Of a stretch of 64,000 nucleotides of DNA, positions 2,182 to 17,656 are shown one piece after another. How positions within the stretch are numbered: position 1 is the first letter of the stretch; each line of letters starts with the position of its first letter. Source of the DNA: Escherichia phage Es2; the sequence record OR515477.1; one strand, written 5' to 3'. Under the pieces are notes generated by a model that was not told the origin of the DNA, did no database searches, and saw only the letters and a program-made list of their open reading frames with translations. The position numbers were made by a program, and so were the translations under genes.

Positions 2182-2210
2182 TTGACTTTTAGCCCTAGTT
2201 ATTATATAAT
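2182..2210 (+). promoter_or_regulatory. sigma70-type early promoter
   Basis: TTGACT, 17 bp spacer, TATAAT. Confidence 0.6.
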
Positions 2211-2243: not shown

Positions 2244-2675
2244 ATGTCTGATCGTTTCTATACTCAAATGGCGGAACATTTTCGTATACCACATTACGAG
2301 CTAAACATTGCACTCCGTGATCATGACTCTCCTGAGTACAAAAAGCTCGAAAAGAAAGCGGAAAAATCTATTGATACAAAGGTAGGTGCATCTATGTCTA
2401 AGGGCAAAAAGTTAACTCGTCTTGATCTTAATAAAATTTTAACTGAACTTTTGGGTACTGATATTGAAGGTGCTAAATTACCGCTTCTTGTACTAGAGAC
2501 TATGATTAAAAAGGTCAAAAATAAAGAGTATAAAAAGGTAGAAGTCCCAGAAGGCAGATTAAAGGCTCCTTATCAGGAAGCATTAACCGAGTGTTTGGGT
2601 GTAAATCTTGATCTGAGCACCGCAACCGTAAAAACTATGAAAAACTTCTTAGAGGCCATTAATAACTATGAGTAA
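2244..2675 (+). CDS. hypothetical early protein
   Basis: 143 aa ORF with RBS AGAGAGG; no recognisable motif. Confidence 0.45.
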   Translation: MSDRFYTQMAEHFRIPHYELNIALRDHDSPEYKKLEKKAEKSIDTKVGASMSKGKKLTRLDLNKILTELLGTDIEGAKLPLLVLETMIKKVKNKEYKKVEVPEGRLKAPYQEALTECLGVNLDLSTATVKTMKNFLEAINNYE

Positions 2676-2958
2676 ATTAGTATATCTATTGAAAGGTTCT
2701 ACTTGCAACCCTTGCAAAATGTTTGAGCCAGTATTTGATAAAGTAGTCAATGAATATAATTTGGAAGTCCATAAAGAGACTGATAATACAGAATTAATGC
2801 AGAAATTTGGCGTACGCCAAGTTCCTGTAGTAGTTCTGGCAGATCGCTTACCTAATGGTCGAGTAGAAGCTAATCATATTTTGATTGGACGTCAGCTTCG
2901 TAAAGAAACTATGCACGAAGCTATTAAAAATTTCCTGGATGATAATCCAGAGGATTAA
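2668..2958 (+). CDS. thioredoxin/glutaredoxin-like protein
   Basis: 96 aa; C-N-P-C redox-type motif near N-terminus after a beta-strand-like LVYLLKGS. Confidence 0.4.
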   Translation: MSKLVYLLKGSTCNPCKMFEPVFDKVVNEYNLEVHKETDNTELMQKFGVRQVPVVVLADRLPNGRVEANHILIGRQLRKETMHEAIKNFLDDNPED

Positions 2959-2965
2959 TAAACCA

Positions 2966-2997
2966 AGCCTGATCTTAGCGGATCAGGCTTTTATTTT
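2966..2997 (+). terminator. rho-independent terminator
   Basis: AGCCTGATC-ttagc-GATCAGGCT followed by TTTATTTT. Confidence 0.65.
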
Positions 2998-2999
2998 AC

Positions 3000-3028
3000 T
3001 TGCTTTCAGCTAAAAATTTTGGTATAAT
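3000..3028 (+). promoter_or_regulatory. sigma70-type early promoter
   Basis: TTGCTT, 17 bp spacer, TATAAT. Confidence 0.55.
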
Positions 3029-3055
3029 ACTTATATAAATTGATTGGAGGATTAA

Positions 3056-3301
3056 ATGTTAGCGGAACAAGCAAAACGTTTAGCTAGGATAAATAGAGCT
3101 GCTCTTCTCAAGAGCAGAAAGAAGCCGTATAGATACGTTAAAAGACGGATTCTAGCTTCTGTAGAGGCTGGGGGTTCTTTTATACAATTTAATCGTGATG
3201 AAATTAGTTATGAAGCTATAAAAGCCCTCTATAAAGATGGTTATACTCTAAAACTATCAAATAATTATGGTACAACTATTTTAAATGTTATTTGGGAATA
3301 A
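3056..3301 (+). CDS. hypothetical early protein
   Basis: 81 aa ORF with RBS GGAGGA. Confidence 0.4.
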   Translation: MLAEQAKRLARINRAALLKSRKKPYRYVKRRILASVEAGGSFIQFNRDEISYEAIKALYKDGYTLKLSNNYGTTILNVIWE

Positions 3302-4167
3302 TTATGAAAAAAGAATTTAATGTACATAAAACACTAGTAGTACCTGATGATGTTAACTTATTCTTTGTTGGTGATATTCATGGATGCAACGATTTACTAG
3401 AAGATGCACTACAATTAGCTGGATATAACGGCAAGAAAGATTGCGTTGTATGCGTGGGAGATTTAATTGATCGAGGCACGCAGAACCTACAAGTTTTAGC
3501 TAAATTCCTGTATAATCCACGCTTTATCAGTGTCCGTGGTAATCATGACCAATTTATGATTGTGGGAGATTGGGCTAACTGGATGTATAACGGTGGTATG
3601 TGGGCTATGAATGAACTAGATGCAGATACCATTAAAAATATTGCCGAAGACATGGCTGAAAAAATGCCAGTATTCCTAACTGTTAAACATCGCGGCAAGA
3701 AGTATGGTGTTGTTCATGGTGGTGTACCTTTTACATACAAAGAATGTGGTAATGAAGTAGAAACCCCAGTATGGGATAATCTTATTGCACAAGTAGAAGC
3801 AGCTAAGGAAGACCCACACGACCATCCTGGATACCATGTTGAGCCATACTTATGGGATCGAGATGTAATCCAAGAAATAGGTTTTCACTTAGCTAAAAAT
3901 GGTGAAGAACACTCATATTTCCAGCGTTATGCAGGGTTTAAAGAGAAATACATGGTAGAAGTACCTCCAGTTAATGGGGTAGACTTTGTATTTCATGGAC
4001 ATACCGGAGTACCTTACCCGATTTTATACCAGAACCGTGTTTATCTTGATACTGGCGGTGTTTTCAACGGGCAGTTGACGGTTGCGCAAGTTAATGATGA
4101 AACTGGGAAAATCACAACATTTACCACGCTTCGAGAAGATAGCTGTGGTGTACAGAGGATTCTTTAA
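3292..4167 (+). CDS. serine/threonine protein phosphatase (calcineurin-like metallophosphatase)
   Basis: 291 aa; GDIHG, GDLIDRG and GNHD metallophosphatase motifs. Confidence 0.7.
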   Translation: MGIIMKKEFNVHKTLVVPDDVNLFFVGDIHGCNDLLEDALQLAGYNGKKDCVVCVGDLIDRGTQNLQVLAKFLYNPRFISVRGNHDQFMIVGDWANWMYNGGMWAMNELDADTIKNIAEDMAEKMPVFLTVKHRGKKYGVVHGGVPFTYKECGNEVETPVWDNLIAQVEAAKEDPHDHPGYHVEPYLWDRDVIQEIGFHLAKNGEEHSYFQRYAGFKEKYMVEVPPVNGVDFVFHGHTGVPYPILYQNRVYLDTGGVFNGQLTVAQVNDETGKITTFTTLREDSCGVQRIL

Positions 4168-4454
4168 TGAATGATAGAATGAAAGAAGTACAAGAAGAAT
4201 TACGAGCAATGCGTATTGATGCCCTTCGTTGGAGAGCATTAGTTAATGCTTTCGTCAAAGGAGATACCGGAGTAATATATTCTGGAATAGCAGTCAATTT
4301 TTGTTTTAATTCTCCTGCTGAAATAGAGATAGAAACAAGGCTTACTACCTACCTTAATGAGGTAGACCTTAAGGAAGGAGAGACTCCCGGGGAGTTTAAA
4401 ACTAGAGTATTAACTACCTGGGTTGATAATTTAATACAAAAAAGGAGTAAGTGA
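4167..4454 (+). CDS. hypothetical early protein
   Basis: 95 aa ORF, start overlaps upstream stop (ATGA). Confidence 0.4.
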   Translation: MNDRMKEVQEELRAMRIDALRWRALVNAFVKGDTGVIYSGIAVNFCFNSPAEIEIETRLTTYLNEVDLKEGETPGEFKTRVLTTWVDNLIQKRSK

Positions 4455-5044
4455 TGAAGGTTAAATTCTGGTCAGACTTGCACTTAGACCACCCTGGAGC
4501 ACTACGTTTCCGTCCGTGGTTTAAGAACATGAAAGAGCACGATGAGTATATTCTAGATACTTTATCCAAGCATATTGGTAAACGAACAAAACTTATTTTG
4601 CTAGGAGATATTGCAGTAGGTCGTGAAGGTCTGGCCAAATTAAAGTCGGTTATCCACAATGTCCCTAATCAACTCATTATGGGTAATCATGATGCGGAGC
4701 GTCAAGGACTGAGTATTAGGGACTTAGCGGAAGTTTATGACGATATTCAAGCTCTAGGCAAACAGACTGGAGGTGGCAAAAAGTTTTGGCTATCTCACTG
4801 CCCTTTGCACCCTAATGAACTTCGTGGCAAACTAAATATTCACGGACATGTACATACTACTTCTTTACGTGATCCACGTTATATTAATGTCTCATTTGAA
4901 ATGAGTAGAACTCCAATTCCACTAGAGGATATTGTGTCTGGTAAGTTTACTAGTTACGATAGAGTGGTTAATTGTACTACCGGCGAGGTATTACAAATAG
5001 GAGAAGACGTAGCTGCTGTATTGCGTGGCGATATAAATGTCTAA
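4451..5044 (+). CDS. metallophosphoesterase-like protein
   Basis: 197 aa; LLGDIAVG, GNHD and GHVH motifs. Confidence 0.5.
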   Translation: MMKVKFWSDLHLDHPGALRFRPWFKNMKEHDEYILDTLSKHIGKRTKLILLGDIAVGREGLAKLKSVIHNVPNQLIMGNHDAERQGLSIRDLAEVYDDIQALGKQTGGGKKFWLSHCPLHPNELRGKLNIHGHVHTTSLRDPRYINVSFEMSRTPIPLEDIVSGKFTSYDRVVNCTTGEVLQIGEDVAAVLRGDINV

Positions 5045-5152
5045 GTATATAGCTAGGGCTATTATTAAACGAATTATACAAGTGATAGCAATACTTATAG
5101 TTATTTGTATTGCCATTGGCACAGGACTAGGCATTTTAATTAAAAGTTTTAT

Positions 5153-5181
5153 TTGCTAAAATGCCTAAATTTCTGTATAAT
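5153..5181 (+). promoter_or_regulatory. sigma70-type early promoter
   Basis: TTGCTA, 17 bp spacer, TATAAT. Confidence 0.55.
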
Positions 5182-5211
5182 TACTTTATAAATTGATGAG
5201 AAGGAATAAAA

Positions 5212-5643
5212 ATGAACAAAGTCGATAAAGCCTTAGTTTTCGCAGCAGCAGATAAGTTTGAACAAGTCAAGGCAACTTTCCGAACCTTGTTCCAGTCTTA
5301 CGTTCAAGATAAGTCTAATCCTATTTCTGAACGCTTAATGGTTTGGGAATGTCATGCTTGCAATGCCCTGCTAATTGCGGATTATCGTAGTGATATAGAT
5401 AAAGATCTCTGTGAAATCCTCATCCCTGAGGAAGCAGAACGTTATCAGCTAATCTCTTTTCAAGATTTGGCAGAGCACATAATCCCTGATGATCTTTGGG
5501 ATAAATACTATGGTGATCCTGAAGATGAGGGGATGACTCCAGAAGCATGTATTGAGTTAATCTGTAAGGATCATCCTGAAATTGCAGAAAAATTTGAAAA
5601 AGTTTTTGCTTCTGAGTTCTCTGGTGTTGTTAACGATTGGTAA
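5212..5643 (+). CDS. hypothetical early protein
   Basis: 143 aa ORF with RBS GAGAAGGAA. Confidence 0.45.
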   Translation: MNKVDKALVFAAADKFEQVKATFRTLFQSYVQDKSNPISERLMVWECHACNALLIADYRSDIDKDLCEILIPEEAERYQLISFQDLAEHIIPDDLWDKYYGDPEDEGMTPEACIELICKDHPEIAEKFEKVFASEFSGVVNDW

Positions 5644-5660
5644 GTAATTAAAAAATTCAG

Positions 5661-5689
5661 TTGCTTTAAGCCTTAAAATTCTGTATAAT
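5661..5689 (+). promoter_or_regulatory. sigma70-type early promoter
   Basis: TTGCTT, 17 bp spacer, TATAAT. Confidence 0.55.
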
Positions 5690-5721
5690 AAGTTCATAAA
5701 TTAATGAGAGAGGAAATTCTA

Positions 5722-5973
5722 ATGGAAAACATGACTAAAAATGAAATGGCTAACGTTCTGGCAATTCTCCTCGACATGCAGGGTTTTGAGGGTCAGCTCA
5801 TGAAGATGTCTATTCCGGCAATGAAAAAGATGTATGATTCTCTGAATAAGAATGCTATGGCATTCAACCTTGCAAAACAGGAAGCACGTTTTGCTAAAGA
5901 GCATCAAGCGACTGCCGAACGTCGTGCAGCATCTTTTGAGCGTGAAGTTAAGCAACTGAAAGGTAAGAAATAA
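5722..5973 (+). CDS. hypothetical early protein
   Basis: Start moved to the ATG at 5722, which has RBS GAGAGGA 7 nt upstream; ORF track begins at 5704. Confidence 0.4.
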   Translation: MENMTKNEMANVLAILLDMQGFEGQLMKMSIPAMKKMYDSLNKNAMAFNLAKQEARFAKEHQATAERRAASFEREVKQLKGKK

Positions 5974-5995
5974 GGACTAAGGGAGTATATAATTA

Positions 5996-6277
5996 ATGTT
6001 GATTGAAATTCTTATTGGGTTACTAGTTCTTACTACCCTAGTAGCGATTGGCGGAGTTATTGGGATTGTGAATGCACGAAAAAGCATGGAAAATATGCTT
6101 ATTACTAATGATGGACTACACCACCGTTTGCTAGAGCAAGAGCAGGATATTGAATTAGCACAAAGACGCTCGGATATTCTTAAGGAAAAATTAAATAATA
6201 TAGAAGCAATAGTTGGGAATAATAAATTACCTGCTAAAGTAATGCGTACACAGATAATCACGGAGATTAAAAAATGA
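5996..6277 (+). CDS. small membrane-anchored coiled-coil protein
   Basis: 93 aa; N-terminal TM then charged helical region. Confidence 0.4.
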   Translation: MLIEILIGLLVLTTLVAIGGVIGIVNARKSMENMLITNDGLHHRLLEQEQDIELAQRRSDILKEKLNNIEAIVGNNKLPAKVMRTQIITEIKK

Positions 6278-6519
6278 TGATGTTTATTCTAGCGTTTTAT
6301 CTAATTGTGGTTGGTGTACTGGTTACTAAGTATCACACATGGACACCAAAGAATGTAGGTAAGGTAGCACTGTTTGTTATCCCAGTTCCACTTATTATCT
6401 TTTCTATGTTACTGGTGATGTTAATTGGTAAAGTAACAAAAACTGATATTAAACGTATTGCTGATGAATTGCAACAGTCTTGTGATATGGTAGAGGATAT
6501 TATTAAAGATGAAGCTTAA
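6274..6519 (+). CDS. small membrane protein
   Basis: 81 aa with two hydrophobic segments; ATGA overlap with upstream gene. Confidence 0.4.
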   Translation: MMMFILAFYLIVVGVLVTKYHTWTPKNVGKVALFVIPVPLIIFSMLLVMLIGKVTKTDIKRIADELQQSCDMVEDIIKDEA

Positions 6520-6835
6520 TTTTAATGAATTAAATACCTTACATGAGATATTACAGTTTGTGAATAATAATATTAGTATTCCAGATGATACTCTAGAAGT
6601 TCTCATGTTAATCGAGAAAAAGGTAGGAATTGAAATTGAGGATTCTTGGAAACCACTTTCTGTATTAACACCACTTAATATAAAAGTGATAGTTAAAAAT
6701 ATTGATACTGGTGAAGAGTGTGAAATGATTCGTAAAGAACTAGCTGATAGTTATTCACCAAAGTCTGTAGTAATGTACCATGATGATACTCCTAAGGTTC
6801 TACAGACAGCTAATTACGTATGGCGTCTACCATGA
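6509..6835 (+). CDS. hypothetical early protein
   Basis: 108 aa ORF. Confidence 0.4.
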   Translation: MKLNFNELNTLHEILQFVNNNISIPDDTLEVLMLIEKKVGIEIEDSWKPLSVLTPLNIKVIVKNIDTGEECEMIRKELADSYSPKSVVMYHDDTPKVLQTANYVWRLP

Positions 6836-6978
6836 TTGATCTAGTACCAGTTACTGCGGGGCTAATAGCATTGCTAGTATTAGCAGTATTCATTATTGTG
6901 GAGCAGGCCAAAGTAATAAGGAGACTTAAAAACAATGATAAAACGTCTTGTTTATCAGGCACCAAAGATTGTAACTGA
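6832..6978 (+). CDS. small membrane peptide (48 aa), not in ORF track
   Basis: ATGA overlap with upstream stop; hydrophobic core AGLIALLVLAVFIIV; overlaps next ORF in another frame. Confidence 0.25.
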   Translation: MIDLVPVTAGLIALLVLAVFIIVEQAKVIRRLKNNDKTSCLSGTKDCN

Positions 6979-7135
6979 GTATTTTGTATTACTGCCTCAG
7001 ATTGTATTTCTAACAGCATTATTTAATATACTTTTTCGACATCTAGGAATAACGGAAAATATCTTCTACACTTCTGAACTACTTCCCTTTATGTACGAAG
7101 GCATCATCGTGGCAATTAACGGAGTTCGTAAATGA
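6935..7135 (+). CDS. small membrane protein
   Basis: 66 aa; strong RBS AAGGAGA 8 nt upstream. Confidence 0.4.
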   Translation: MIKRLVYQAPKIVTEYFVLLPQIVFLTALFNILFRHLGITENIFYTSELLPFMYEGIIVAINGVRK

Positions 7136-7593
7136 CAGCACTACAACAACTACAGAATTACTGGTTTGATAACCAATTTAACGATCTCTTTATCCAGTTG
7201 TTTGTCGAAACGAACGGACGCTTCAACTACCGATTCTTTAATAAGTTTCACGAAACAAAATTCTCCCATACAGAAATTAACGCAGCAATTCAGGACTTAA
7301 CAGGTTCTAAGGTAATTCAGTATCGTGAAGTAGACTTTACACCAGATTGTTTTGGATTTGAATTGTTTAAGAAAGCGTATAAATTTGGCAAGTTTGAGGA
7401 TGCTCGTCAATGGGTTCATGATTTCTGGTATAATACCGATATTGTTCCTAGTCGTGTGCTGATTCTTAACTGGATTGCTAAACAACACCCACCTAAAGCT
7501 CAATCGTCCTTCTTACCAACTGACACAGGAAACCTTTACCATGACAGAAAAGAAAAATCCATTGCTGGAGCAGATGAAGGAATGGGAGAGTAA
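7132..7593 (+). CDS. hypothetical early protein
   Basis: 153 aa ORF. Confidence 0.4.
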   Translation: MTALQQLQNYWFDNQFNDLFIQLFVETNGRFNYRFFNKFHETKFSHTEINAAIQDLTGSKVIQYREVDFTPDCFGFELFKKAYKFGKFEDARQWVHDFWYNTDIVPSRVLILNWIAKQHPPKAQSSFLPTDTGNLYHDRKEKSIAGADEGMGE

Positions 7594-7912
7594 TATTGAA
7601 ACTGGTCTAGTAGACGGAGAAGATATTGTTAACTCTATGCTAGAAGTAACAGTGGATAATATTAACCCTATTTTGGCCGGGGAAACCTCAGATCTTATAG
7701 GACTTTCTAGTACATTCGATTCTTTGGCTAAATTAGCCTTAGATAACGAAGAGATAACCAAAGAAGATCTCGCTACAGCTATGAATATGGCTATTAACGC
7801 CTATATTGGTAAACGTACTGATGAACTCGATAAACAAATCAAAAAGCGTGATACAACGTTAGATCTTATGGAAATGGCCACTATGTTAAGAAGTGGTAAA
7901 CAACTTCATTAA
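7541..7912 (+). CDS. hypothetical early protein (acidic)
   Basis: Start set at an internal ATG (MTEKKNPLL) to limit overlap; the true start is uncertain. Confidence 0.35.
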   Translation: MTEKKNPLLEQMKEWESNIETGLVDGEDIVNSMLEVTVDNINPILAGETSDLIGLSSTFDSLAKLALDNEEITKEDLATAMNMAINAYIGKRTDELDKQIKKRDTTLDLMEMATMLRSGKQLH

Positions 7913-7919
7913 TTTTAGG

Positions 7920-7953
7920 GGCCAGGACTTAATTGTTCTGGCCTTTTGTGTTT
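7920..7953 (+). terminator. rho-independent terminator
   Basis: GGCCAGGAC-ttaatt-GTTCTGGCC followed by TTTTGTGTTT. Confidence 0.55.
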
Positions 7954-7966
7954 CAAGGAACTCCAA

Positions 7967-8170
7967 ATGCAAGTATACGTCCTTACTAGAGACATAAATG
8001 AGTATAATCAGGATGGTGAGTATTTTGTAAAAGTGTTCGCTGAAAAGCCAAGTAAACAACAACTATTAGACGCTGGAGTACCAGAAGACCAGGCTAAGTA
8101 TATACTACAAGATAAAGAATTTACTGGAGATGCTTACGAATGCTTCCATCTTAGTTGTGAGAATATCTAA
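7967..8170 (+). CDS. hypothetical early protein
   Basis: ORF track start at 7946 lies inside the terminator hairpin, so the ATG at 7967 is preferred. Confidence 0.3.
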   Translation: MQVYVLTRDINEYNQDGEYFVKVFAEKPSKQQLLDAGVPEDQAKYILQDKEFTGDAYECFHLSCENI

Positions 8171-8171
8171 T

Positions 8172-8618
8172 ATGAGAGAAAAAGTAAATGAATTATTAAT
8201 CGAGGAAGCGAACAACTTCCCAATAAATAGGTTTATCAAATCGGATGGATCTATTAATAGAACTAAGATTAAGCAGTTACACCCCGACTTTCAACAAGAA
8301 GCGCTAAATCTTATATTTGTCAAGAAAGCTGTTGCAGCTCATGGGGTTTTCTTCGGGTATGAGCGTGTAAATTATAAGACAATGCAACAGCAGGTTGAGA
8401 TATATTGTCCAGACCACAAGGGTTATTACTGGCAAACTGCTAGATCTCATTTAGAAGGGCATGGTTGTCGACTGTGCGCACACAAGGTTGTGCAGCGTAT
8501 CACGGATTATGGAACTTATACCGTACCAGCATGTTATCATAAATTTGTAATTGACGATAACCATATAGTTTGGTATAATAAGTTTTCAAAGTTAAGAATG
8601 GAGATAAATAGTGAGTAG
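8172..8618 (+). CDS. zinc-finger-containing protein
   Basis: C-P-D-H...H-L-E-G-H-G-C-R-L-C-A-H cysteine/histidine cluster; start at 8172 (MREKVNELL), RBS unclear. Confidence 0.4.
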   Translation: MREKVNELLIEEANNFPINRFIKSDGSINRTKIKQLHPDFQQEALNLIFVKKAVAAHGVFFGYERVNYKTMQQQVEIYCPDHKGYYWQTARSHLEGHGCRLCAHKVVQRITDYGTYTVPACYHKFVIDDNHIVWYNKFSKLRMEINSE

Positions 8619-8901
8619 CTACATTGTATGGTCAAATCCATTAGCAGCACTTAGTAATAAATTATTTAAAACAGAATGGGGTAAAAACGAAATAGACTTA
8701 GGTAGTCGCCCAATACCAAATAAGCACCCATTAGTACCCGAGCTATATAGGGTAGTTATAAATGGCACAGAGTATTTGGTCGATAAATTTGACAGAAAAC
8801 GTTTACTAGAGGGTATCTACGATAATTCTATATCAATAAATGAATTAGTGGAACATGCCCAAATATATGATAAAAGCTGGATGTTAATATGGAAATCATA
8901 G
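8611..8901 (+). CDS. hypothetical early protein
   Basis: 96 aa ORF. Confidence 0.4.
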   Translation: MSSYIVWSNPLAALSNKLFKTEWGKNEIDLGSRPIPNKHPLVPELYRVVINGTEYLVDKFDRKRLLEGIYDNSISINELVEHAQIYDKSWMLIWKS

Positions 8902-9122
8902 CAATTATTTTAGTAGTTATGTTATTCATCGTAGTACTTGTATCTTTTGCTATTATGAGCAGAGCTAGAGAACTAGCAGAAGATCTAACAAAATTACGTG
9001 GTGAAGTGGCCGCCCTTAAACTACAGCGTGAGGCTTTAAAGTTGTTTGTAGTTCAGGGTAGCGTAGCTCATACACCAGAAGACTTCATCATATACCTCAA
9101 ACGCTATATGGGGATTAAATAA
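8889..9122 (+). CDS. small membrane-anchored coiled-coil protein
   Basis: 77 aa; N-terminal TM IIAIILVVMLFIVVLV then helical region. Confidence 0.35.
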   Translation: MEIIAIILVVMLFIVVLVSFAIMSRARELAEDLTKLRGEVAALKLQREALKLFVVQGSVAHTPEDFIIYLKRYMGIK

Positions 9123-9307
9123 TGGAAACACTTTTTCTTTTAATGCTCGTAGGTTCGTTAGTAGTTATATTAGCACTCCTATTAATCTGTAATATTCTTA
9201 ATAATAAGAATTTAGGACTAAAGTGTGAGAACCAAATCCTTAATCGTGAACTTGAGCAATATAACCTAGCAGCCCATAAACTATTAGACAAACTGGAGAA
9301 TAAATAA
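9122..9307 (+). CDS. small membrane-anchored coiled-coil protein
   Basis: 61 aa; same architecture as the preceding ORF. Confidence 0.35.
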   Translation: METLFLLMLVGSLVVILALLLICNILNNKNLGLKCENQILNRELEQYNLAAHKLLDKLENK

Positions 9308-9906
9308 TGTTCACACAACAACCTATTCAAGTAGTACCAGACCATGAACTGAACACATGGGATTATAGCTTTAAAGATTTAACTGCTACTGTACAATTCA
9401 AATCTATGAAGCTAACATTTGCACACACTGACCTTAGAGCATGTAAAGATCTTGAAGGTAAGCTAGAAGATGCTCGTAAGATTTTTGGCAAGGCTCGCAT
9501 CCCGGCTGATAACCTGATTAATGCACTGATCGATGCAGGATACAAACTCGTGAAGGCTGAGGTTAACCGTCCTAGTACTCCAGTGACTATTAGAGATCCG
9601 TGGCAATCAGGGCCAATCGCAATGCTAAATAAATCATCGGATTTGCACAATGTTCCATGTGGCGGTACGCTGTCGTCTAATCAATCCTATCGAGTTGGGG
9701 AAGATTATGGGCCTTCTATACAGTTGAAACATACTCAAGAAGCTCTTGAGTCTGACATGAAAAGCGTAGCACCGGGGAACTCTGGAGTTTCTAGGAATTC
9801 TGTCTATACTGTTCATTTAAACAATCCTGGTAATCATGGAAGTTTAGAGGATGCTATTATGGAGGCGTTGGGAGCTGTCATTAATGAAGATAAGAGAGGT
9901 AATTAA
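9307..9906 (+). CDS. hypothetical early protein
   Basis: 199 aa ORF; ATGA overlap with upstream gene. Confidence 0.45.
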   Translation: MFTQQPIQVVPDHELNTWDYSFKDLTATVQFKSMKLTFAHTDLRACKDLEGKLEDARKIFGKARIPADNLINALIDAGYKLVKAEVNRPSTPVTIRDPWQSGPIAMLNKSSDLHNVPCGGTLSSNQSYRVGEDYGPSIQLKHTQEALESDMKSVAPGNSGVSRNSVYTVHLNNPGNHGSLEDAIMEALGAVINEDKRGN

Positions 9907-10253
9907 TGATATTTGGTAAAACAAAAATAGCCCCTGCTGGGGAAAATTTAATTACTCTTAGCCTCTACTATAAGGATGAAAATGTAGAAATAGAAACATT
10001 AGAGTATGTTCTTATAAATACTAATAAGCCTAAAATAGGAGAGTTACTTGGTATAATCTCTAATATCTCTGATAGGGAAGATATTCCAAGTATAACACCA
10101 AAGAATATAGCTCACTTAGCACAACAATTAGGAATCTTGTGGTATAAAGTAGATCTTCCAGCTAAAGAAAGAACCAAAGGAACCTTTGCAGAGATCGCAA
10201 GAAAACCTAAGTCAGAAAAGAAAGAAACAGGGGAGCAAGCGTCTGATATATGA
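9906..10253 (+). CDS. hypothetical early protein
   Basis: 115 aa ORF. Confidence 0.4.
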   Translation: MIFGKTKIAPAGENLITLSLYYKDENVEIETLEYVLINTNKPKIGELLGIISNISDREDIPSITPKNIAHLAQQLGILWYKVDLPAKERTKGTFAEIARKPKSEKKETGEQASDI

Positions 10254-10963
10254 TTAAAGAAGCCGAAAAATTAAAACGTCTCATCCAGCTAGCGCGGGGT
10301 GCTACACAAAAGAGTCTTTCCCAGCTAACTAATGAAGAAAAATATGCAGTAATGTTTTTAGGAGATCATTATCCTGCTAGGTGGGATAAAGGTAAGATCA
10401 AGTATGATCGTGATGCAAAACAAGTTGTTTGGTCAGGCTCATATGTAGAAGTGAATAAAGCATTAAAGGCTTTAGATCCTGAAGCAAAAGGTTTCTCTTC
10501 TAATGCTATTCATATTCTAATTGATGAAGATCTCCCAAGATTTAAGGAAGCATCATTTAAAGAAGCATTAGCTAGTGAAGATCTTATTCCTTTTAAACAC
10601 GGTAAGTATGCACATCTTCCACCACTAGAAAAAGAGAAACCTACTCTAGTTAAAGATGAAGTTTATCGTGGGATTGGCACAATGCTAGCGAGTTTGACTG
10701 TAGCTCTCCATAAAGATCTAGAGTTAACGCCCCTAGAAAACGCTGTGCATTTCATGTGCCATAAGTACGAGGATACATTTAAAGAGCTATGTAAGTCGCT
10801 AGGAATGCCAAGTTACACGATATTAAACTATGCTCCTGAATATACTAGAGCAGCTCGTGGAACTATGGATTACGATGATACAGGATCCACTGCTTCCTAT
10901 TTAGCAACTTATATCTACTTCGCATCCTTAGGTATCAAACTCAAATCCAAGAAGGAGGAATAA
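10250..10963 (+). CDS. hypothetical early protein
   Basis: 237 aa ORF, last gene before the repeat region. Confidence 0.45.
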   Translation: MIKEAEKLKRLIQLARGATQKSLSQLTNEEKYAVMFLGDHYPARWDKGKIKYDRDAKQVVWSGSYVEVNKALKALDPEAKGFSSNAIHILIDEDLPRFKEASFKEALASEDLIPFKHGKYAHLPPLEKEKPTLVKDEVYRGIGTMLASLTVALHKDLELTPLENAVHFMCHKYEDTFKELCKSLGMPSYTILNYAPEYTRAARGTMDYDDTGSTASYLATYIYFASLGIKLKSKKEE

Positions 10964-10980: not shown

Positions 10981-11010
10981 TTGCATTCTCATACCCAAAC
11001 ATGTTATAAT
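10981..11010 (+). promoter_or_regulatory. sigma70-type promoter upstream of non-coding transcript
   Basis: TTGCAT, 17 bp spacer, TATAAT. Confidence 0.45.
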
Positions 11011-11017
11011 AATCTCA

Positions 11018-11185
11018 TAGATTAACAACTACTCTAGTTGATTAACTCTAGGGGCGATGATTATTACACGAATGTCTCGTATAGCTTGCGGCCTAGCAAC
11101 AGCGGTATGACGGCATGAGTACTCACGTAATTAATCACGCGCCCACAGGAGAGACTCTCATGAAATTGGGGGTCTCTTTTTCTTT
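11018..11185 (+). ncRNA. candidate small structured RNA (about 165 nt)
   Basis: Bracketed by the promoter at 10981-11010 and a hairpin plus T-tract terminator at 11148-11185; long-range helix GGGGCG/TGATTA with TAATCA/CGCCC; only a 17-codon ORF with weak SD. Confidence 0.3.
11148..11185 (+). terminator. rho-independent terminator
   Basis: AGAGAC...GTCTCT stem followed by TTTTTCTTT. Confidence 0.45.
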
Positions 11186-11269
11186 ATATTATTTAAATAT
11201 TTTTAATGGCAATATCTGTGTTCAAGATGATACACCTGTTGCCGCTCATCTGCTAGGATGGCACAACAC

Positions 11270-11560
11270 TTTCTTCTAGACTCCTAAGTTTCTAGGAATA
11301 GTTGAGCACTAACTCTAGAGTTTACATTAAACTTTAAATCTGTTTCTCTAGTCAACTCAGGCGGTTTTCATATTCCTAGAAACTCTAGCAATAGGCGGTT
11401 AATACAGGGCGGTTTTAGGGAGGGCGGTTATTTCTAGAAGACATTTTTTGAAAACACATTTCTAGAAATTACTGTCGTATTTGCACACTGCATTTCTAGA
11501 AATTTATGGTCGGATTTGCACAAACGCCTAAGTTTTTAGGAACATATAATCTCTTGAAAA
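11270..11560. repeat. TTCTAGAA palindrome cluster and CCTAAGTTTYTAGGA repeats
   Basis: At least 4 copies of ATTTCTAGAA(A) and 4 copies of the ctRAGTTTYTAGRA element. Confidence 0.6.
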
Positions 11561-12080
11561 TGGCAGCATTATTTCGGGCCGAAGGCCCGTGATTGCCTGA
11601 GTTTTTAGAGCCACAAGAATTTTCACTTGTCAAGCTATTTTGCCCCATTTAGCAAATAAAATTTTACTTTATCTCCTCTAATCTCAAATTAACCCAAATC
11701 TTCTCAACTCTTCCCCAAAATACCCGCAAATCAGGTGCTCCGCACCAAACATGCGCCTCTCCCACAGTTCCCCCAAAATTTCTCTCGCTCTCTCAACTTC
11801 TCCCCAAACATACACAATCACACACCCTCCAATCGAAGCCACAAAAATCTTGTCGGATTCGCACATCTTAATCCTAGAAAAACCGTGTCGGATTTGCACA
11901 TACCCCACAGGATTCGAACGCAGTTCGAGATTGCTGGAGTTTTTAGGAAAATTCATTGTCGGATTCGCACACTATAAAAATTTTTCGGGTCGGATTTGCA
12001 CACTACCAAAAATTGTCGGATTCGCACATACACGCCCGCACGTAACACCCGTGGAGCAATGTCGGATTTGCACAAAAGCG
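11470..12080. repeat. dispersed 14-mer repeat GTCGGATT(T/C)GCACA, about 8 copies
   Basis: Copies near 11476, 11508, 11852, 11886, 11958, 11988, 12013 and 12058 with irregular spacing. Confidence 0.65.
11690..11830. repeat. C/A-rich low-complexity tract with CCCCAAAA-type repeats
   Basis: Strong strand compositional bias; repeated tCCCCAAAa units. Confidence 0.5.
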
Positions 12081-12099
12081 CAGGGCAATTGCCCTGCGC

Positions 12100-12310
12100 T
12101 AAATGAGAATAAAAATAAGAATCATTCTCATTTAGAAAGCGGAATGAGAATGATAATAATTCGCATTTAGAAAGCGAAATGAGAATCAATCTCATTTAAG
12201 AACGGAAACGAAAATTATTCAGGAAGTGAAACGATTCTCATTTAGAAAGTGGAATGATTCTCATTTAGAAAGTGGAATGCAAATGATAATGATTCGCATT
12301 TAAGAATGGA
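12100..12310. repeat. tandem array of ATTCTCATTTAGAAAG(Y)GGAATGA units with embedded inverted repeats
   Basis: About 5 direct repeat units plus AAATGAGAAT/ATTCTCATTT palindromic cores. Confidence 0.65.
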
Positions 12311-12333
12311 AGTGAGAAACACTGTTATTTAAG

Positions 12334-12415
12334 TTATCCACAGACTTATCAACAGCACGATTTGACTTGACAAAATTCTAGCCATTTTGAGGCGTTATCA
12401 ACAGACTTATCAACA
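12334..12415. promoter_or_regulatory. cluster of DnaA-box-like sites
   Basis: TTATCCACA (12334-12342) matches the DnaA box consensus TTATNCACA; TTATCAACA at 12346, 12395 and 12407. Confidence 0.45.
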
Positions 12416-12423
12416 GCTTATCC

Positions 12424-12443
12424 TACTGTATAAATATACAGTA
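12424..12443. promoter_or_regulatory. LexA (SOS) box-like palindrome
   Basis: TACTGTATAAATATACAGTA, CTGT-N8-ACAG, 18 of 20 match to TACTGTATATATATACAGTA. Confidence 0.45.
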
Positions 12444-12636
12444 TTCCTATGCAGTGAATAATTCTAATATACAGCTAAAACGCTCTCAAACGCATTCTAA
12501 CGCGTTTAATTTTGGTGGGGATACTAAAACACGGGCAAAATTGGAGGAGGCTTAGAAATTAGTTAGCTCGCTAACGATCACACAAGGCGACACGTAACAT
12601 CCTAACCATTAGCAGGCTAACCATCGCGGGCGCGGT

Positions 12637-12659
12637 CAAATGAGAATGATTCTCATTTG
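12637..12659. repeat. perfect 22 bp palindrome
   Basis: CAAATGAGAATGATTCTCATTTG, same core as the 12.1-12.3 kb array. Confidence 0.55.
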
Positions 12660-12809
12660 AGAATTGGGGGCACTTCCTGATAGTTGCGCCCCGTGATTAT
12701 TACAGTAGTGGGCAACCTTTACGCTTTGCCCATTCCCGCCACTCATCTTGATGTCTAGACTTGCGACGGCGTACTAAAAACCATTTATACCAGTGATTAA
12801 ACCATCGTT

Positions 12810-13013
12810 TCATAAATCCTCCTCCGGTAGTCGGTGCGTGATTTTTTCCTCCTCTCCGTAGGAATCCACTAAATGCTGATAATAACCATCGTGATCATAA
12901 ATCACTTTATCATATTCGCCACGCTCGACCGCTTGTCGGTTTTCCGGCGTATCTGGCACGTAAAAAACATCAACCATTGTACTGATTTTGGTTACAACAA
13001 TTTTATTGCTCAT
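12810..13013 (-). CDS. hypothetical small acidic protein (67 aa)
   Basis: RBS GGAG upstream of ATG; inside higher-GC cassette. Confidence 0.4.
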   Translation of the reverse strand: MSNKIVVTKISTMVDVFYVPDTPENRQAVERGEYDKVIYDHDGYYQHLVDSYGEEEKITHRLPEEDL

Positions 13014-13038
13014 AATAACGCTCCGTTATTATATAATC

Positions 13039-13383
13039 TCATTGTGCCACCTTTCGAAACGCTGTTTCAATACTTTCCGCAGTTGACTGAATATACGCGC
13101 CTTTCATGATCAGGCGCTCAGTGCATACCTTACGGAAGATATTAATAAAATCATCTTCATTTTCTGCAATTAACGCTTCACCCATAACCTGAACGTCACA
13201 AGATGCAAAGGTCAAAAATTGAAACGCTAGTTCACGGGCAACGACCTCATTGATTTTATAATGCGCCTTGCCCTCATAAATATTAATAACGCCCTTATAT
13301 GTTGGGGAAAGCTGATTTAAATAATTTGCTAATAATGCTGGGCGGCAATTAGCAATAAAACGATTGCCTTCATAAATAACCAT
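13039..13383 (-). CDS. hypothetical protein (114 aa)
   Basis: Start set at the ATG with RBS GGGAGG 6 nt upstream (MVIYEGNRF); ORF track start is 13398. Confidence 0.4.
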   Translation of the reverse strand: MVIYEGNRFIANCRPALLANYLNQLSPTYKGVINIYEGKAHYKINEVVARELAFQFLTFASCDVQVMGEALIAENEDDFINIFRKVCTERLIMKGAYIQSTAESIETAFRKVAQ

Positions 13384-13510
13384 TTGACAGCCTCCCAATT
13401 AGATAGCCAGATAATAACATAAAGATCCCCAATGAAAGGGGGTCATTTTTAAATAGGGTGGCGGTAAAACCGCCAGCCATTGCAAGGATGATAACAATAA
13501 CGCTTTTCAT
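13367..13510 (-). CDS. small two-segment hydrophobic peptide (47 aa), not in ORF track
   Basis: MKSVIVIILAMAGGFTATLF...LSLGIFMLLSGYLIG; ATGA overlap with upstream stop. Confidence 0.3.
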
Positions 13511-13719
13511 AGTACCCCACGAAACGCAGCGTAAAAGGTGGCAAAATGTTTAACTGTTTCAGCTATCACGTTGCCGCGCTTGTCAAATTTCTTTTCTGTA
13601 ACACGAAAGGCATTCTTATTACGTGCTACATATTCAATTTTACAATCTTCCCGCTCGAACGTGTTAACATCCACCAGCTTAAAGCCTTTCGAACGTGCAA
13701 GAGAAACATTGCGGATCAT
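13507..13719 (-). CDS. hypothetical basic protein (70 aa)
   Basis: RBS AGGAGAA upstream of ATG. Confidence 0.4.
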   Translation of the reverse strand: MIRNVSLARSKGFKLVDVNTFEREDCKIEYVARNKNAFRVTEKKFDKRGNVIAETVKHFATFYAAFRGVL

Positions 13720-13721
13720 TT

Positions 13722-13871
13722 TTATTCTCCTTTACTAGTCATGCAGCCCAGCAGATAAGAAAATGCAGCGATACCCGCGCCAATAATAACCGCGTGAACA
13801 CCGAAAGCTATTGCAAAAAGGGATAAAATAGCGCCCAAGATACCTGCTAGAATAGCTCGAAAAATAACCAT
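13722..13871 (-). CDS. small two-segment hydrophobic peptide (49 aa), not in ORF track
   Basis: MVIFRAILAGILGAILSLFAIAFGVHAVIIGAGIAAFSYLLG; RBS AGGAGA 7 nt upstream. Confidence 0.3.
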   Translation of the reverse strand: MVIFRAILAGILGAILSLFAIAFGVHAVIIGAGIAAFSYLLGCMTSKGE

Positions 13872-13917
13872 TTTCATTCTCCTAGTTTGCGGGGCGAAAG
13901 TAACGCCCCGTTATTAC

Positions 13918-14158
13918 TTACATTAAAACAATTTTTGCCGCTTGTTTTTTAGTACAGTGTTCCGCTTTCAGGGTATCCAGCAAAAAGCCGGCCGTTTGCT
14001 GATCGATTTTATCGGCGTTGTATAGTTCTTGGATGGTGTTATAAGTTTTAGCAATGCCGAACTCCTGCACCATTTCATGAATGATGGCGCGATTAGATAC
14101 CCAGCCTTGCGCGGTGAACAGATGACTAGCAGAAGAATAAGCAACCATTTTAAACCTC
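13918..14158 (-). CDS. hypothetical protein (80 aa)
   Basis: Start set at the ATG with RBS GGAGG upstream (MVAYSSASHLF); ORF track start is 14181. Confidence 0.4.
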
Positions 14159-14266
14159 CAAATTTTTGGGAAAATTTTCAACCGTCCTCAAACGGTGTAA
14201 AGGCATTATAACAAAAAAGGTCGCCATAAAAGGCGACCTTTACAAAACTTTACATTAGATTATTTA

Positions 14267-15277: not shown

Positions 15278-15541
15278 TTGTTCGGCCTCCTCGTTAATCG
15301 GTGAGTGAATGATAAAGGTATTTTCTTTCTAGGGGCAAATATTATTTTACCTTTTTATTTTCTTTGCCTAACTCCTAGTTTTATGCTAATCGCGCAGCGG
15401 TACAGTAAAGAGCAAAACACGGCGAAGCCACCAGGGCGACGGGTGAAGGCTTTACTTTAATATTACCCCACTGCATTTAGCTCGTTAGAAAGCGATTTAG
15501 GCCGCTTAAAATTGATTGCAGTTGTTAACACTACCTTTTTA

Positions 15542-15561
15542 CCCTGTATATTTATACAGTA
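15542..15561. promoter_or_regulatory. LexA (SOS) box-like palindrome
   Basis: CTGTATATTTATACAG, CTGT-N8-ACAG. Confidence 0.45.
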
Positions 15562-15569
15562 GGATAACC

Positions 15570-15651
15570 TGTGGATAAGTCTGTGTAAAAGTCCTTATAT
15601 CGCCGCCTATCATGTCAAGTTATTTTACAAAATGTATAAGTCTGTGGATAA
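15570..15651. promoter_or_regulatory. DnaA-box-like sites
   Basis: TGTGGATAA at 15570-15578 and 15643-15651, reverse complement of TTATCCACA. Confidence 0.45.
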
Positions 15652-15841
15652 CTTAAATAATAGTGTTTCTCACTAACTAATTTATGCAGTTATTATATCG
15701 TAAAATATAGTTAGTTGGCTAATAGGATTTTAAAGTGATTATGAGTCCGCTAATTAAACCTGAAAAACTCATTAGCTAGTCTGCTAATCATTTTGATATA
15801 ATATAATAGAGATTAAATTAATAACATAAGGAAACAATTAG

Positions 15842-16360: not shown

Positions 16361-16384
16361 TTTATTTTATAAATTAACTCGTTT

Positions 16385-16416
16385 AGTCTTGATTTTTAAA
16401 AGTCAAGACCTTTTTC
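16385..16416 (+). terminator. rho-independent terminator
   Basis: AGTCTTGA-loop-TCAAGAC followed by CTTTTT. Confidence 0.5.
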
Positions 16417-17558: not shown

Positions 17559-17656
17559 TCTAGTGTTAACTTTATATTCCCCTGAAATATGGGGAATATA
17601 ACGATTAACATTAGTTAATCATAATCCCTTAAATTAAACTAATAGGAGTTTATATC

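Follow-up and report, generated by a model that had tools for sequence, protein, structure and literature searches.

Positions 2244-10963 of Escherichia phage Es2 (OR515477.1), numbered within the 64-kb stretch of DNA analysed here (the window), very probably make up the cluster of left-hand early genes, or "C-region", found in T5-like phages (Tequintavirus). A Tequintavirus (T5-like) genome is the source of the whole window, and gene-by-gene mapping aligns the block with T5.038-T5.019 of phage T5, a cluster classically known as the "early C-region" and previously mapped and annotated there; the block is a real observation but one already known.

Correspondence with phage T5

Many Tequintavirus genomes, including Bf23 and NBSal005, share 90-94% nucleotide identity with Es2 over the whole block, which is flanked on one side by the lysis cassette (T-type holin and endolysin, 608-1674) and on the other by the large non-coding region next to the terminal repeat. 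Gene order and strand are identical to those of the T5 early C-region (NC_005859), and the products mostly share 84-100% protein identity, with lower values for T5.034 (52%) and T5.019 (74%). The five promoters (including P-F30) and two terminators of the T5 region are all matched, and the T5 products that carry transmembrane notes are the counterparts of the hydrophobic products of the block. The T5 record AY509815 is described as an "early C-region fragment" and names promoter P-F30 and one similar to P-D/E33. It is from this homology to T5 that the early status of the Es2 block would follow. Es2 differs from T5 in that T5.031 and T5.018 are missing, an extra 95-aa ORF lies between C2 and T5.034, the T5.034 allele is Epseptimavirus-like, a Bf23/NBSal005-type ORF pair (9906-10963) sits where T5 has T5.018, and two conserved micro-ORFs (40 and 48 aa) are unannotated in the T5 reference.

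Gene layout and coding evidence

The tightly packed small ORFs with ATGA-type overlaps described in the initial annotation are borne out: 24 ORFs, all on the + strand, lie between 2244 and 10963, with a median length of 96 aa (13 of the 24 are shorter than 100 aa) and a coding fraction of 96.7%. Overlaps occur at 16 of the 23 junctions, five of them 4-nt ATGA/GTGA, four 1-nt TAATG and seven longer. For the 22 ORFs that can be matched to T5 or Bas26 (Epseptimavirus), dN/dS is 0.00-0.31 throughout, which identifies them as real genes under purifying selection. Neither of those two phages has a counterpart of the 95-aa ORF (4167-4454) or of the 115-aa/237-aa pair, whose support as genes consists of 86-99% protein identity confined to NBSal005 and Bf23. 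It is scarcely credible that many of the short ORFs are chance frames in AT-rich DNA, an idea prompted by the purely mechanical nature of the ORF list and by the absence of micro-ORFs 5037-5159 and 6832-6978 from the T5 reference annotation. The substitution pattern just described already refutes it; moreover, both micro-ORFs are intact in six of six relatives and each is represented in PHROG or annotated in some other phage, and the dense, same-strand layout of the block argues in the same direction.

Promoters and terminators

At least five near-identical TTGCTx-17-TATAAT promoters had been proposed for the block. Five strong sigma-70 promoters are indeed present, but only three are of the TTGCTx type (3000, 5153 and 5661), the two further strong sites (2182 and 8551) being TTGACx-17-TATAAT; in the 64-kb window as a whole, the exact TTGCTx-17-TATAAT pattern occurs five times against 0.21 expected. 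The T5 reference record annotates a promoter at each of the five places, and the sites have in common an A-rich upstream block, a TTGCTx/TTGACx -35 hexamer, a perfect TATAAT and, immediately downstream, an ATAAATT box. Their positions are conserved wherever the fetched stretch of a relative covers the site, across two genera with ∼70% DNA identity; promoter 1, which falls outside the three Epseptimavirus stretches compared, is identical in T5, Bf23 and NBSal005.

2182..2210, + strand: early promoter 1, TTGACT-17-TATAAT, upstream of the T5.038 homologue; matches T5 feature 19368-19442
3000..3028, + strand: early promoter 2, TTGCTT-17-TATAAT; matches T5 feature 18550-18624
5153..5181, + strand: early promoter 3, TTGCTA-17-TATAAT, the known P-F30 named in T5 records
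5661..5689, + strand: early promoter 4, TTGCTT-17-TATAAT, similar to T5 P-D/E33 (AY509815 annotation)
8551..8579, + strand: early promoter 5, TTGACG-17-TATAAT with TG extension; matches T5 feature 13212-13286
2965..2990, + strand: intrinsic terminator ending the first transcription unit, 11-bp stem then T run; T5 terminator 18607-18637
7917..7946, + strand: intrinsic terminator after the T5.025 homologue, 12-bp stem then T run; T5 terminator 13864-13898

Promoter 5 lies within the T5.023 homologue, at the 3′ end of that gene. No promoter for the T5.024 and T5.023 homologues was found by the block promoter scan downstream of the terminator at 7917-7946, so that these genes would need read-through or an unrecognised promoter.

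Enzymes and proteins linked to transcription

The initial annotation held that no member of the block could be assigned from sequence, which is wrong for about six: the zinc module protein described below and the following five.

2244..2675, + strand: T5.038 homologue, 143 aa, basic, 100% identical to T5
2668..2958, + strand: T5.037 homologue, thioredoxin fold with CNPC motif; Pfam Thioredoxin_3 and Thioredoxin above gathering score
3304..4167, + strand: T5.035 homologue (classical gene C2), lambda-type Ser/Thr protein phosphatase, 287 aa, 32.6 kDa
4451..5044, + strand: T5.034 homologue, second metallophosphoesterase, start GTG 4451 or ATG 4454; Pfam Metallophos and Metallophos_2
7132..7593, + strand: gpT5.026 homologue, 98% identical to T5 14226-14687

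The T5.038 homologue matches phrog_4328 and the C-terminal part of phrog_624 ("DNA binding protein", E 6e-9), is conserved across the Demerecviridae, with tblastn matches in Klebsiella, Proteus and Vibrio phages, and is labelled as DNA-binding in some phage records. NCBIfam thioredoxin and NrdH-like matches to the 2668-2958 product lie under the cut-offs. The C2 product contains the motifs GDIHG, GDLIDRG and GNHD and shares the Metallophos domain (Pfam, E 4e-17) with the lambda Ser/Thr phosphatase (PDB 1G5B, E 4e-32) and with E. coli PrpA and PrpB; it is ∼65 residues longer than the lambda enzyme, with an insertion and a C-terminal extension, and the match consists of two stretches. The T5.034 homologue shares 52% protein identity with T5 and 92% with Epseptimavirus Bas26, which indicates that this gene is mosaic.

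Two of these genes connect the block with transcription control through published work on T5, from which the corresponding properties of the Es2 proteins would be carried over. T5.035 has been mapped to gene C2, which is needed for normal transcription control (PMC7472727), and gpT5.026 attaches to the beta subunit of RNA polymerase and takes part in the switch from early to late transcription (Klimuk et al., 2020; PMC7472727). The 7132-7593 product has the same size, pI and genomic position as gpT5.026 (18,138 Da and pI 5.94 as compared with the published 18,178 Da and 5.93; PMC7472727), and mutagenesis primers A2 and B1 of that study map to 7169-7212. Beta-subunit binding and the effect on the switch were demonstrated for the T5 protein rather than for the Es2 product.

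A zinc module protein without a nuclease domain

8172..8618, + strand: T5.023 homologue, 148 aa, helical N-terminus, CxxH-x16-CxxC zinc module (DUF723-like) and beta-rich C-terminus

The Cys/His zinc cluster previously noted in this product is confirmed, C79, H82, C99 and C102 being invariant among 10 homologues. A zinc module of this kind (Pfam DUF723) is found in phage homing endonucleases, on T5orf172, GIY-YIG and HNH proteins, and several of these match the AF2 model (pLDDT 92.4) with an rmsd of ∼0.9 Å over 53-55 residues; the Es2 product, however, has no nuclease domain and carries a small beta-rich C-terminal domain in its place. The DUF723 assignment was made through precomputed hits of homologues to PF05265, one of these homologues (P0009) being fused to a T5orf172 nuclease domain, and through BFVD fold matches, which are phage endonucleases; a Pfam search of Es2's own protein gave no match, even at E up to 1, and solved structures gave no significant match to the model. 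A decaying endonuclease remnant is ruled out by the strong purifying selection on the gene (dN/dS 0.04-0.10). The nuclease-less protein is most likely a DNA-binding protein.

Small membrane proteins

Seven products have hydrophobic, membrane-type segments.

5037..5159, + strand: 40-aa membrane micro-protein, basic N-terminus and one hydrophobic segment (17-35, score 2.94)
5996..6277, + strand: T5.030 homologue, 93 aa, N-terminal membrane segment (7-25, score 2.57) and charged helical tail
6274..6519, + strand: T5.029 homologue, DUF7442 phage membrane protein, 81 aa, two membrane segments and acidic tail
6832..6978, + strand: 48-aa membrane micro-protein, ATGA overlap on the T5.028 stop codon, segment score 2.91
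6935..7135, + strand: T5.027 homologue, hydrophobic, 66 aa, annotated with two membrane segments in T5
8889..9122, + strand: T5.021 homologue, DUF7237 (Pfam), 77 aa, membrane segment (3-21, score 3.43) and heptad-patterned tail
9122..9307, + strand: T5.020 homologue, 61 aa, N-terminal membrane segment (4-22, score 3.22) and helical tail

Six of these had been described as coiled-coil peptides sharing an N-terminal transmembrane segment and a helical tail. A hydrophobic segment is present in all six, and in the 40-aa ORF (Kyte-Doolittle 19-residue mean 1.9-3.4), but the architecture is not uniform: the ORFs at 5996, 6832, 8889 and 9122 have a single N-terminal segment and a charged tail, that at 6274 has two segments and an acidic tail, and that at 6935 has no tail and one segment in the hydropathy scan versus two in the T5 annotation. 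"Single transmembrane domain" is noted in T5 for the counterparts of 5996-6277 and 9122-9307. The peptides do not form one family, no mutual sequence similarity being detectable, and the coiled-coil label holds for one peptide only, the 8889-9122 tail, whose heptad pattern was significant in a shuffle test (2 of 2000 shuffles); the 6274 ORF was marginal (69 of 2000), and the remaining membrane peptides, including 5996-6277, showed no significant periodicity.

The 40-aa ORF (phrog_21849; dN/dS 0.28) is annotated in Bf23 and not in the T5 reference. The 48-aa ORF is annotated as bas26_0174, is unannotated in T5, Bf23 and NBSal005, and is kept in six of six relatives at 73-96% protein identity with dN/dS 0.20, the changes in the alignment being synonymous and hydrophobic-for-hydrophobic.

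In most of the seven, basic residues follow just after a single N-terminal segment, and the short helical tails should therefore face the cytoplasm; host-directed roles might be envisaged. That these proteins behave like antiholins or set the time of lysis, much as T4 RI acts on the T holin, appears improbable. The endolysin gene lies 570 bp upstream of the first gene of the block, the holin is a member of the T4 T family (Pfam Phage_holin_T, E 2e-113), and several products are approximately RI-sized with a single N-terminal membrane segment; however, none of the membrane proteins matches a lysis-related Pfam or PHROG family, their sequences predict cytoplasmic tails whereas RI is periplasmic, and 3.8-7 kb with several promoters and terminators separate their genes from the lysis genes.

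Other small proteins and variable slots

3056..3301, + strand: T5.036 homologue, 81 aa, pI 10.1, absent from Epseptimavirus relatives
4167..4454, + strand: 95-aa ORF, variable slot, phrog_14979; among six relatives examined, present in NBSal005 only
5212..5643, + strand: T5.033 homologue, DUF7020 (Pfam, E 3e-45), 143 aa, acidic (pI 4.35), own promoter
5722..5973, + strand: T5.032 homologue, DUF7179 (Pfam), 83 aa, basic; 252 nt as annotated in T5 and NBSal005
6509..6835, + strand: T5.028 homologue, 108 aa, acidic, phrog_4731, dN/dS 0.13-0.22
7541..7912, + strand: T5.025 homologue, acidic (pI 4.4), phrog_4905
7967..8170, + strand: T5.024 homologue, 67 aa, acidic, variable slot, phrog_6933, absent from Epseptimavirus relatives
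8611..8901, + strand: T5.022 homologue, 96 aa, phrog_9887, dN/dS 0.03 versus T5
9307..9906, + strand: T5.019 homologue, 199 aa, phrog_5271
9906..10253, + strand: 115-aa ORF, cassette replacing T5.018, common to Bf23 and NBSal005, absent from T5
10250..10963, + strand: 237-aa ORF, cassette replacing T5.018

The label "major head protein" for the T5.036 homologue is a database mislabel. Homologues of the 5212-5643 product are all at least 73% identical and occur almost only in T5-like phages; its AF2 model is all-helical (pLDDT 72) and gave no match in a PDB fold search. The T5.032 homologue shares 99% protein and 96% nucleotide identity with Bas26; a GAGAGAGG ribosome-binding site lies upstream of ATG 5722, and ATG 5704 probably lies in the leader. 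The phrog_4905 alignment of the T5.025 homologue begins at residue 12, and its true start may be 7574. Among 1.84 billion representative proteins the T5.019 homologue matched only T5-like relatives and repeat artefacts, and the 237-aa ORF had four homologue clusters only among 5.8 billion protein clusters and no match in Pfam, NCBIfam or PDB.

For about 18 of the 24 products, family membership among T5-like phages is all that is established. Most members do not show confident homology to characterised housekeeping proteins, and the description of the block as a pool of candidates was a fair one. The further suggestion of host takeover or anti-defence is an already published view; nothing in the analysis points specifically to anti-defence. 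An anti-defence island, with several members acting as inhibitors of bacterial immune systems after the second DNA transfer step, is a possible but rather unlikely reading. Its candidates would be the variable slots (3056-3301, 4167-4454, 7967-8170 and 9906-10963), which differ between close relatives as is typical of accessory genes, and the acidic proteins (5212-5643, 6509-6835 and 7541-7912), several block products being small and acidic, like other T5 proteins that the PARIS defence system senses; that early genes counter immunity is also already suspected in the field. No member, however, matches a characterised anti-defence protein in Pfam, PHROG or NCBIfam, and the T5 counter-defence functions (tRNA-Lys, Rad) and PARIS triggers Ptr1 and Ptr2 all map elsewhere. 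T5 restriction resistance depends on where the site lies with respect to the terminal repeat, an indication that pre-early genes, rather than this block, are responsible.

Proposed working of the block

The C-region cluster would be transcribed rightward (in window coordinates) by host sigma-70 RNA polymerase after the second DNA transfer step, beginning at the five strong T5-type early promoters and punctuated by the two intrinsic terminators, with genes inside each unit presumably coupled in translation through overlapping stop and start codons. Its predicted output comprises three enzymes (the thioredoxin-fold protein, lambda-type Ser/Thr phosphatase C2 and the second metallophosphoesterase), gpT5.026, which would bind the beta subunit of RNA polymerase and assist the early-to-late switch, a protein that has the zinc module of homing endonucleases but lacks the nuclease domain that accompanies it there, seven very small putative inner-membrane proteins, most with short helical tails likely to face the cytoplasm, and about ten probably soluble proteins with hardly any relatives outside T5-like phages.

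Comparable early accessory regions of virulent coliphages are represented by the class I genes of T7 and the early small membrane proteins of T4 (Imm, Sp), in which host RNA polymerase reads densely packed, very small genes that encode both host-directed regulators and small membrane proteins; no sequence or fold relationship with the block was found. From its sequence, the block appears to hold early-class accessory genes of a lytic phage, two of these genes having known roles in viral transcription switching.

Genomic Context of the Block

The block of densely packed small ORFs at 2244-10963 is the T5 early C-region, since homology, position and promoter sites all fit this assignment, and its early temporal class would follow by analogy with T5, from whose literature it is carried over (PMC7472727). 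In a megablast search of phage genomes the block matched 448 records, nearly all of them T5-like Escherichia or Salmonella phages, with the best full-length matches to NBSal005 (93%), SP15 (92%) and Bf23 (92%) and with 90-94% DNA identity to Tequintavirus genomes. The T5 counterpart (NC_005859) runs from T5.038 down to T5.019 and is covered in part by AY509815, deposited in 2004 as an 'early C-region fragment'; 21 of the 24 ORFs correspond one-to-one and collinearly to T5 11908-19360, at 52-100% protein identity. Annotated relatives have the lysis cassette on one side of the block and the left terminal repeat on the other, and the layout of the window is identical:

608-1264, upstream of the block, T4 T-type holin (Pfam, E 2e-113)
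1261-1674, upstream of the block, endolysin
downstream of the block, non-coding DNA rich in repeats, followed by pre-early genes on the opposite strand

Directly 3′ of the endolysin and 5′ of the block is a homologue of T5.039 (1752-2168, + strand), a hydrophobic protein of 138 aa with a Cys-rich loop (CKCNCHRDTKYC), which is annotated in T5 as having four transmembrane domains and for which no family assignment was obtained.

On the other side, a conserved extended -10 promoter (TTGCAT, an 18-nt spacer ending in TGT, TATAAT) lies directly 3′ of the last ORF of the block. It opens a segment (10981-11188, + strand) that continues with ∼170 nt lacking a conserved ORF and a strong intrinsic terminator at 11147-11180, and the predicted RNA of which has a folding energy of -61.3 kcal/mol (z = -6.3) and no match in Rfam. 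A promoter is found at this place in Bf23, NBSal005, Bas26 and Seabear as well, followed by a variable transcribed part. The segment, situated between the early genes and the terminal repeat, may encode a small RNA. Beyond it, 11280-12670 is the counterpart of the large T5 non-coding region that carries the injection stop signal and borders the terminal repeat. Its dense repeat arrays include seven copies of TGTCGGATT(T/C)GCACA, seven of the palindrome AATGAGAATCATTCTCATT, which resembles a Fur box, and two of GTTATC(C/A)ACAGACTTATCAACAGC, which contains the DnaA-box-like sequence TTATCCACA.

Promoters and Terminators

The initial annotation described at least five near-identical TTGCTx-17-TATAAT promoters serving these genes. 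Five strong sites are present, but just three are of the TTGCTx type and the other two are TTGACx:

2182, TTGACT-17-TATAAT promoter
3000, TTGCTx-17-TATAAT promoter
5153, TTGCTx-17-TATAAT promoter
5661, TTGCTx-17-TATAAT promoter
8551, TTGACG-17-TATAAT promoter
2965-2990, terminator, matching T5
7917-7946, terminator, matching T5

The exact TTGCTx-17-TATAAT pattern occurs five times in the 64 kb, against 0.21 expected; the two copies outside the block are at 23323-23351 and 61065-61093, both on the - strand. The promoters at 2182, 3000, 5153 and 5661 have in common an A-rich block upstream and an ATAAATT box 3′ of the -10 element. All five positions are kept in T5, Bf23 and NBSal005, as are all four sites that lay inside the stretches fetched from the Epseptimaviruses Bas26, phiR2-01 and Seabear. 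Each of the five corresponds to one of the five promoters annotated in the T5 record, and AY509815 names the promoter preceding T5.033 P-F30 (GenBank M11604) and describes that preceding T5.032 as similar to P-D/E33 (M11600); the promoters of the block belong to a known class. PN25, a classic T5 promoter, had no match in the window at up to three mismatches to the sequence used. A further candidate at 6871, within the 48-aa ORF and in a region with a predicted promoter in the Bf23 record, was rejected on account of its poor -10 element and lack of conservation in NBSal005.

Coding Content and Selection

All 24 ORFs of the block are on the + strand, with a median length of 96 aa and 13 of them shorter than 100 aa. 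The tight packing with ATGA-type overlaps noted initially is borne out: 96.7% of the block is coding and 16 of the 23 junctions overlap (five of ATGA/GTGA type, four TAATG and seven longer). Every ORF with a counterpart in T5 or in Bas26, the Epseptimavirus comparator at ∼70% DNA identity, gave a dN/dS of 0.00-0.31, and these ORFs are therefore genes rather than chance frames. A 95-aa ORF (4167-4454) and the pair of ORFs that replaces T5.018 (9906-10253 and 10250-10963) are without counterparts in T5 and Bas26 and are supported by near-identity to NBSal005 and Bf23.

Two micro-ORFs absent from the T5 reference annotation, of 40 aa (5037-5159) and 48 aa (6832-6978, correctly delimited in the initial annotation), pass the same dN/dS test, evidence that both are real genes. 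The start of the 48-aa ORF and the T5.028 homologue's stop codon overlap as ATGA (TTGA in Epseptimaviruses); the ORF is intact in six of six relatives and is annotated in Bas26, and substitutions in its alignment include synonymous ones and exchanges of one hydrophobic residue for another. For the T5.032 homologue, the ATG at 5722 is preceded by a ribosome-binding site (GAGAGAGG) and is also the start in T5 and NBSal005; it is preferred to the ATG at 5704, which is ∼7 nt past the predicted transcription start.

Membrane Peptides

Six peptides had been proposed to share an N-terminal transmembrane segment and a helical tail. A Kyte-Doolittle scan (19-residue mean) detects membrane-type hydrophobic segments in each of these peptides, and in the 40-aa ORF as well, with means of at least 1.88, in agreement with the transmembrane notes of the T5 record and with Pfam DUF7442 ('phage membrane protein') at 6274-6519. 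The segments thus stand, but the architectures differ. The products starting at 5996, 6832, 8889 and 9122 combine one N-terminal segment, with basic residues directly after it, and a charged tail, that at 6274 has two segments and an acidic tail, and that at 6935 is hydrophobic and tailless. T5 encodes one more peptide of this type, T5.031, which Es2 lacks. The peptides are, at the level of sequence, not a detectable family: each falls in a separate PHROG or Pfam family, and all-vs-all BLASTP, which found no paralogy, gave only composition-level matches between hydrophobic stretches (E ≥ 0.05). In a crude heptad shuffle test, coiled-coil-like periodicity of the tail was significant only for 8889-9122 (2/2000) and marginal for 6274-6519 (69/2000); the others were not significant.

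Products with Assignable Functions

That none of the products can be assigned, as initially held, is an overstatement, given a thioredoxin fold, two metallophosphoesterases, gpT5.026 and the module of the zinc protein discussed below. The product of 2668-2958 has a thioredoxin fold, exceeding the Pfam cut-offs for Thioredoxin_3 (28.3 against 24.8) and Thioredoxin (27.8 against 23.5), with a CNPC motif as its CxxC at residues 13-16; it falls short of the NCBIfam equivalog cut-offs. On its sequence, 3304-4167 is a lambda-type (PPP) Ser/Thr phosphatase, scoring 63.8 bits for Pfam Metallophos (cut-off 21.5), matching PDB 1G5B at E 4e-32 and carrying all three signature motifs (GDxHG, GDxxDRG and GNH[DE]). 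The classical C2 mutation maps to the 32-kDa phosphatase (Klimuk et al., PMC7472727), and the effect of C2 on RNA polymerase is therefore probably indirect. A second metallophosphoesterase is encoded by 4451-5044.

The product of 7132-7593 is, to judge from its match, gpT5.026, the RNA polymerase-binding protein: it is 98% identical over 153 aa, its mass (18,138 Da) and pI (5.94) match those published, and the published gpT5.026 mutagenesis primers fall inside the ORF. In T5, gpT5.026 co-purifies with RNA polymerase and weakens its discriminator-region contacts, binding the β subunit (residues 1-151 and 703-795) with a Kd of ∼1 nM or lower; without it, early transcripts increase, late ones fall and lysis takes longer (PMC7472727).

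Homologues of 2244-2675 occur throughout the Demerecviridae, with examples in phages of Klebsiella, Proteus and Vibrio, and some of those records call them DNA-binding proteins; a PDB sequence search gave no significant match. The acidic DUF7020 product of 5212-5643, which has its own promoter, P-F30, yielded an all-helical AF2 model of moderate quality (pLDDT 72) and no meaningful PDB fold match. A DNA mimic is one speculative reading of this product. Almost no relatives beyond T5-like phages were found for 9307-9906 and 10250-10963. An exhaustive search with the former returned two phage relatives and three proteins of 2000-2500 aa, the latter three being Cna_B, MucBP and LRR adhesins that aligned by way of many short repeats and were dismissed as artefacts; 10250-10963 has only four homologue clusters and no significant match in a PDB sequence search. 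The other small soluble products matched only PHROG families of unknown function. Two names in circulation are propagated errors, namely 'major head protein' for the 81-aa T5.036 family (3056-3301; RefSeq, phrog_7354) and 'D11 protein' for T5.033 homologues (5212-5643) in UniRef. Neither suits an early protein of 9-16 kDa; pb8, the actual major head protein of T5, is of ∼50 kDa (PMC7472727).

The Zinc Protein

The Cys/His cluster recognized in the 148-aa product of 8172-8618, a homologue of T5.023, is confirmed, with C79, H82, C99 and C102 invariant across homologues and a fourth cysteine, C122, variable. Homologues are confined to T5-like phages and related metagenomic contigs, and the protein is under strong constraint (dN/dS 0.04-0.10). 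All nine homologue clusters carry a precomputed match to PF05265 (DUF723); direct hmmscan of the window's own protein against Pfam returned nothing at E up to 1. Within PHROGs, residues 48-106 weakly match two endonuclease families. A relative in Salmonella phage S124, P0009, retains the first ∼110 residues, after which comes a T5orf172 nuclease domain, whereas the Es2 protein has a β-rich tail at this point and no nuclease domain of the GIY-YIG/T5orf172, HNH or similar type. The confident AlphaFold model (pLDDT 92.4, pTM 0.85) gave no significant hit to solved structures; among viral predicted structures (BFVD), the module is matched in endonuclease, T5orf172 and GIY-YIG nuclease proteins (E 4e-13 to 1e-3), and in proteins named restriction enzyme and giant-virus proteins. 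A PDB sequence search found nothing significant, with the zinc-binding ribosomal protein uS14 at E 0.2-0.7. We read the zinc protein as a nuclease-less descendant of the DNA-binding module of a homing endonuclease, and infer that it binds DNA.

Architecture and conservation allow further, more speculative proposals. The zinc protein could be a domesticated domain that now acts as a sequence-specific regulator or, alternatively, could protect against a related endonuclease. Separately, the single-pass membrane peptides starting at 5037, 5996, 6832, 8889 and 9122 (with T5.031 in T5), which are tiny, positionally conserved and have predicted cytoplasmic tails, could form an inner-membrane toolkit that might tether or sequester host cytoplasmic factors, perhaps those of division, proteolysis or membrane-associated immunity, at the membrane early in infection. 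We regard these proposals as distinctly improbable.

Mosaicism and Possible Anti-Defence Functions

The block is a mosaic in which conserved core genes are interleaved with variable slots, namely T5.036, the 95-aa ORF, T5.031, T5.024, T5.021 and the T5.018 position. Inside this Tequintavirus-type block, 4451-5044 is 92% identical to the Bas26 allele versus 52% to those of T5 and Bf23, and it adjoins the 95-aa ORF, shared among the relatives with NBSal005 only, which is evidence of recombination between genera at this slot. The T5.032 homologue (5722-5973; DUF7179, basic, 83 aa) is 99% identical to Bas26 in protein and 96% in DNA, compared with 57-78% in DNA for its neighbours, which points to either recent inter-genus exchange or unusually strong constraint on the gene and its promoter.

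Variable slots are usual for accessory genes, and are the sole feature of the block that leans towards the idea that some of its products are anti-defence proteins; in the BF23 genome paper, host takeover and anti-immunity are given as the probable roles of early genes whose function is unknown. However, T5 restriction resistance is reported to depend on sites outside the terminal repeat, which would indicate pre-early functions and so argue against such a role for the block. The T5 genes already known to counter or trigger defence (Ptr1, Ptr2, tRNA-Lys, Rad and Dmp) map elsewhere, no link between them and the block was found in the literature, and searches of the block products in Pfam, PHROGs and NCBIfam gave no anti-defence family name.

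Implications for T5-like Phages

Much of this picture is already known. The T5 reference annotation includes the gene content, the promoters, the terminators and the transmembrane notes, one member of the block has been characterized biochemically, and the host-takeover reading is published (BF23 genome paper). The initial description is correct in this sense, and overstated in promoter uniformity, the coiled-coil label and the denial of any assignment. The additions made here are modest, comprising a gene-by-gene map of this isolate, support for two micro-ORFs as genes, recognition of the zinc protein as a nuclease-less relative of the DNA-binding modules of homing endonucleases, and correction of two misnomers. 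T5-like phages serve as models and are candidates for phage therapy, and their temporal switch in transcription and the majority of their early proteins still await explanation. The block houses both genes so far tied to the T5 switch, C2 and gene 026, together with ∼18 conserved proteins without assigned function, so that functional screens are sensible here, as the literature recognizes.
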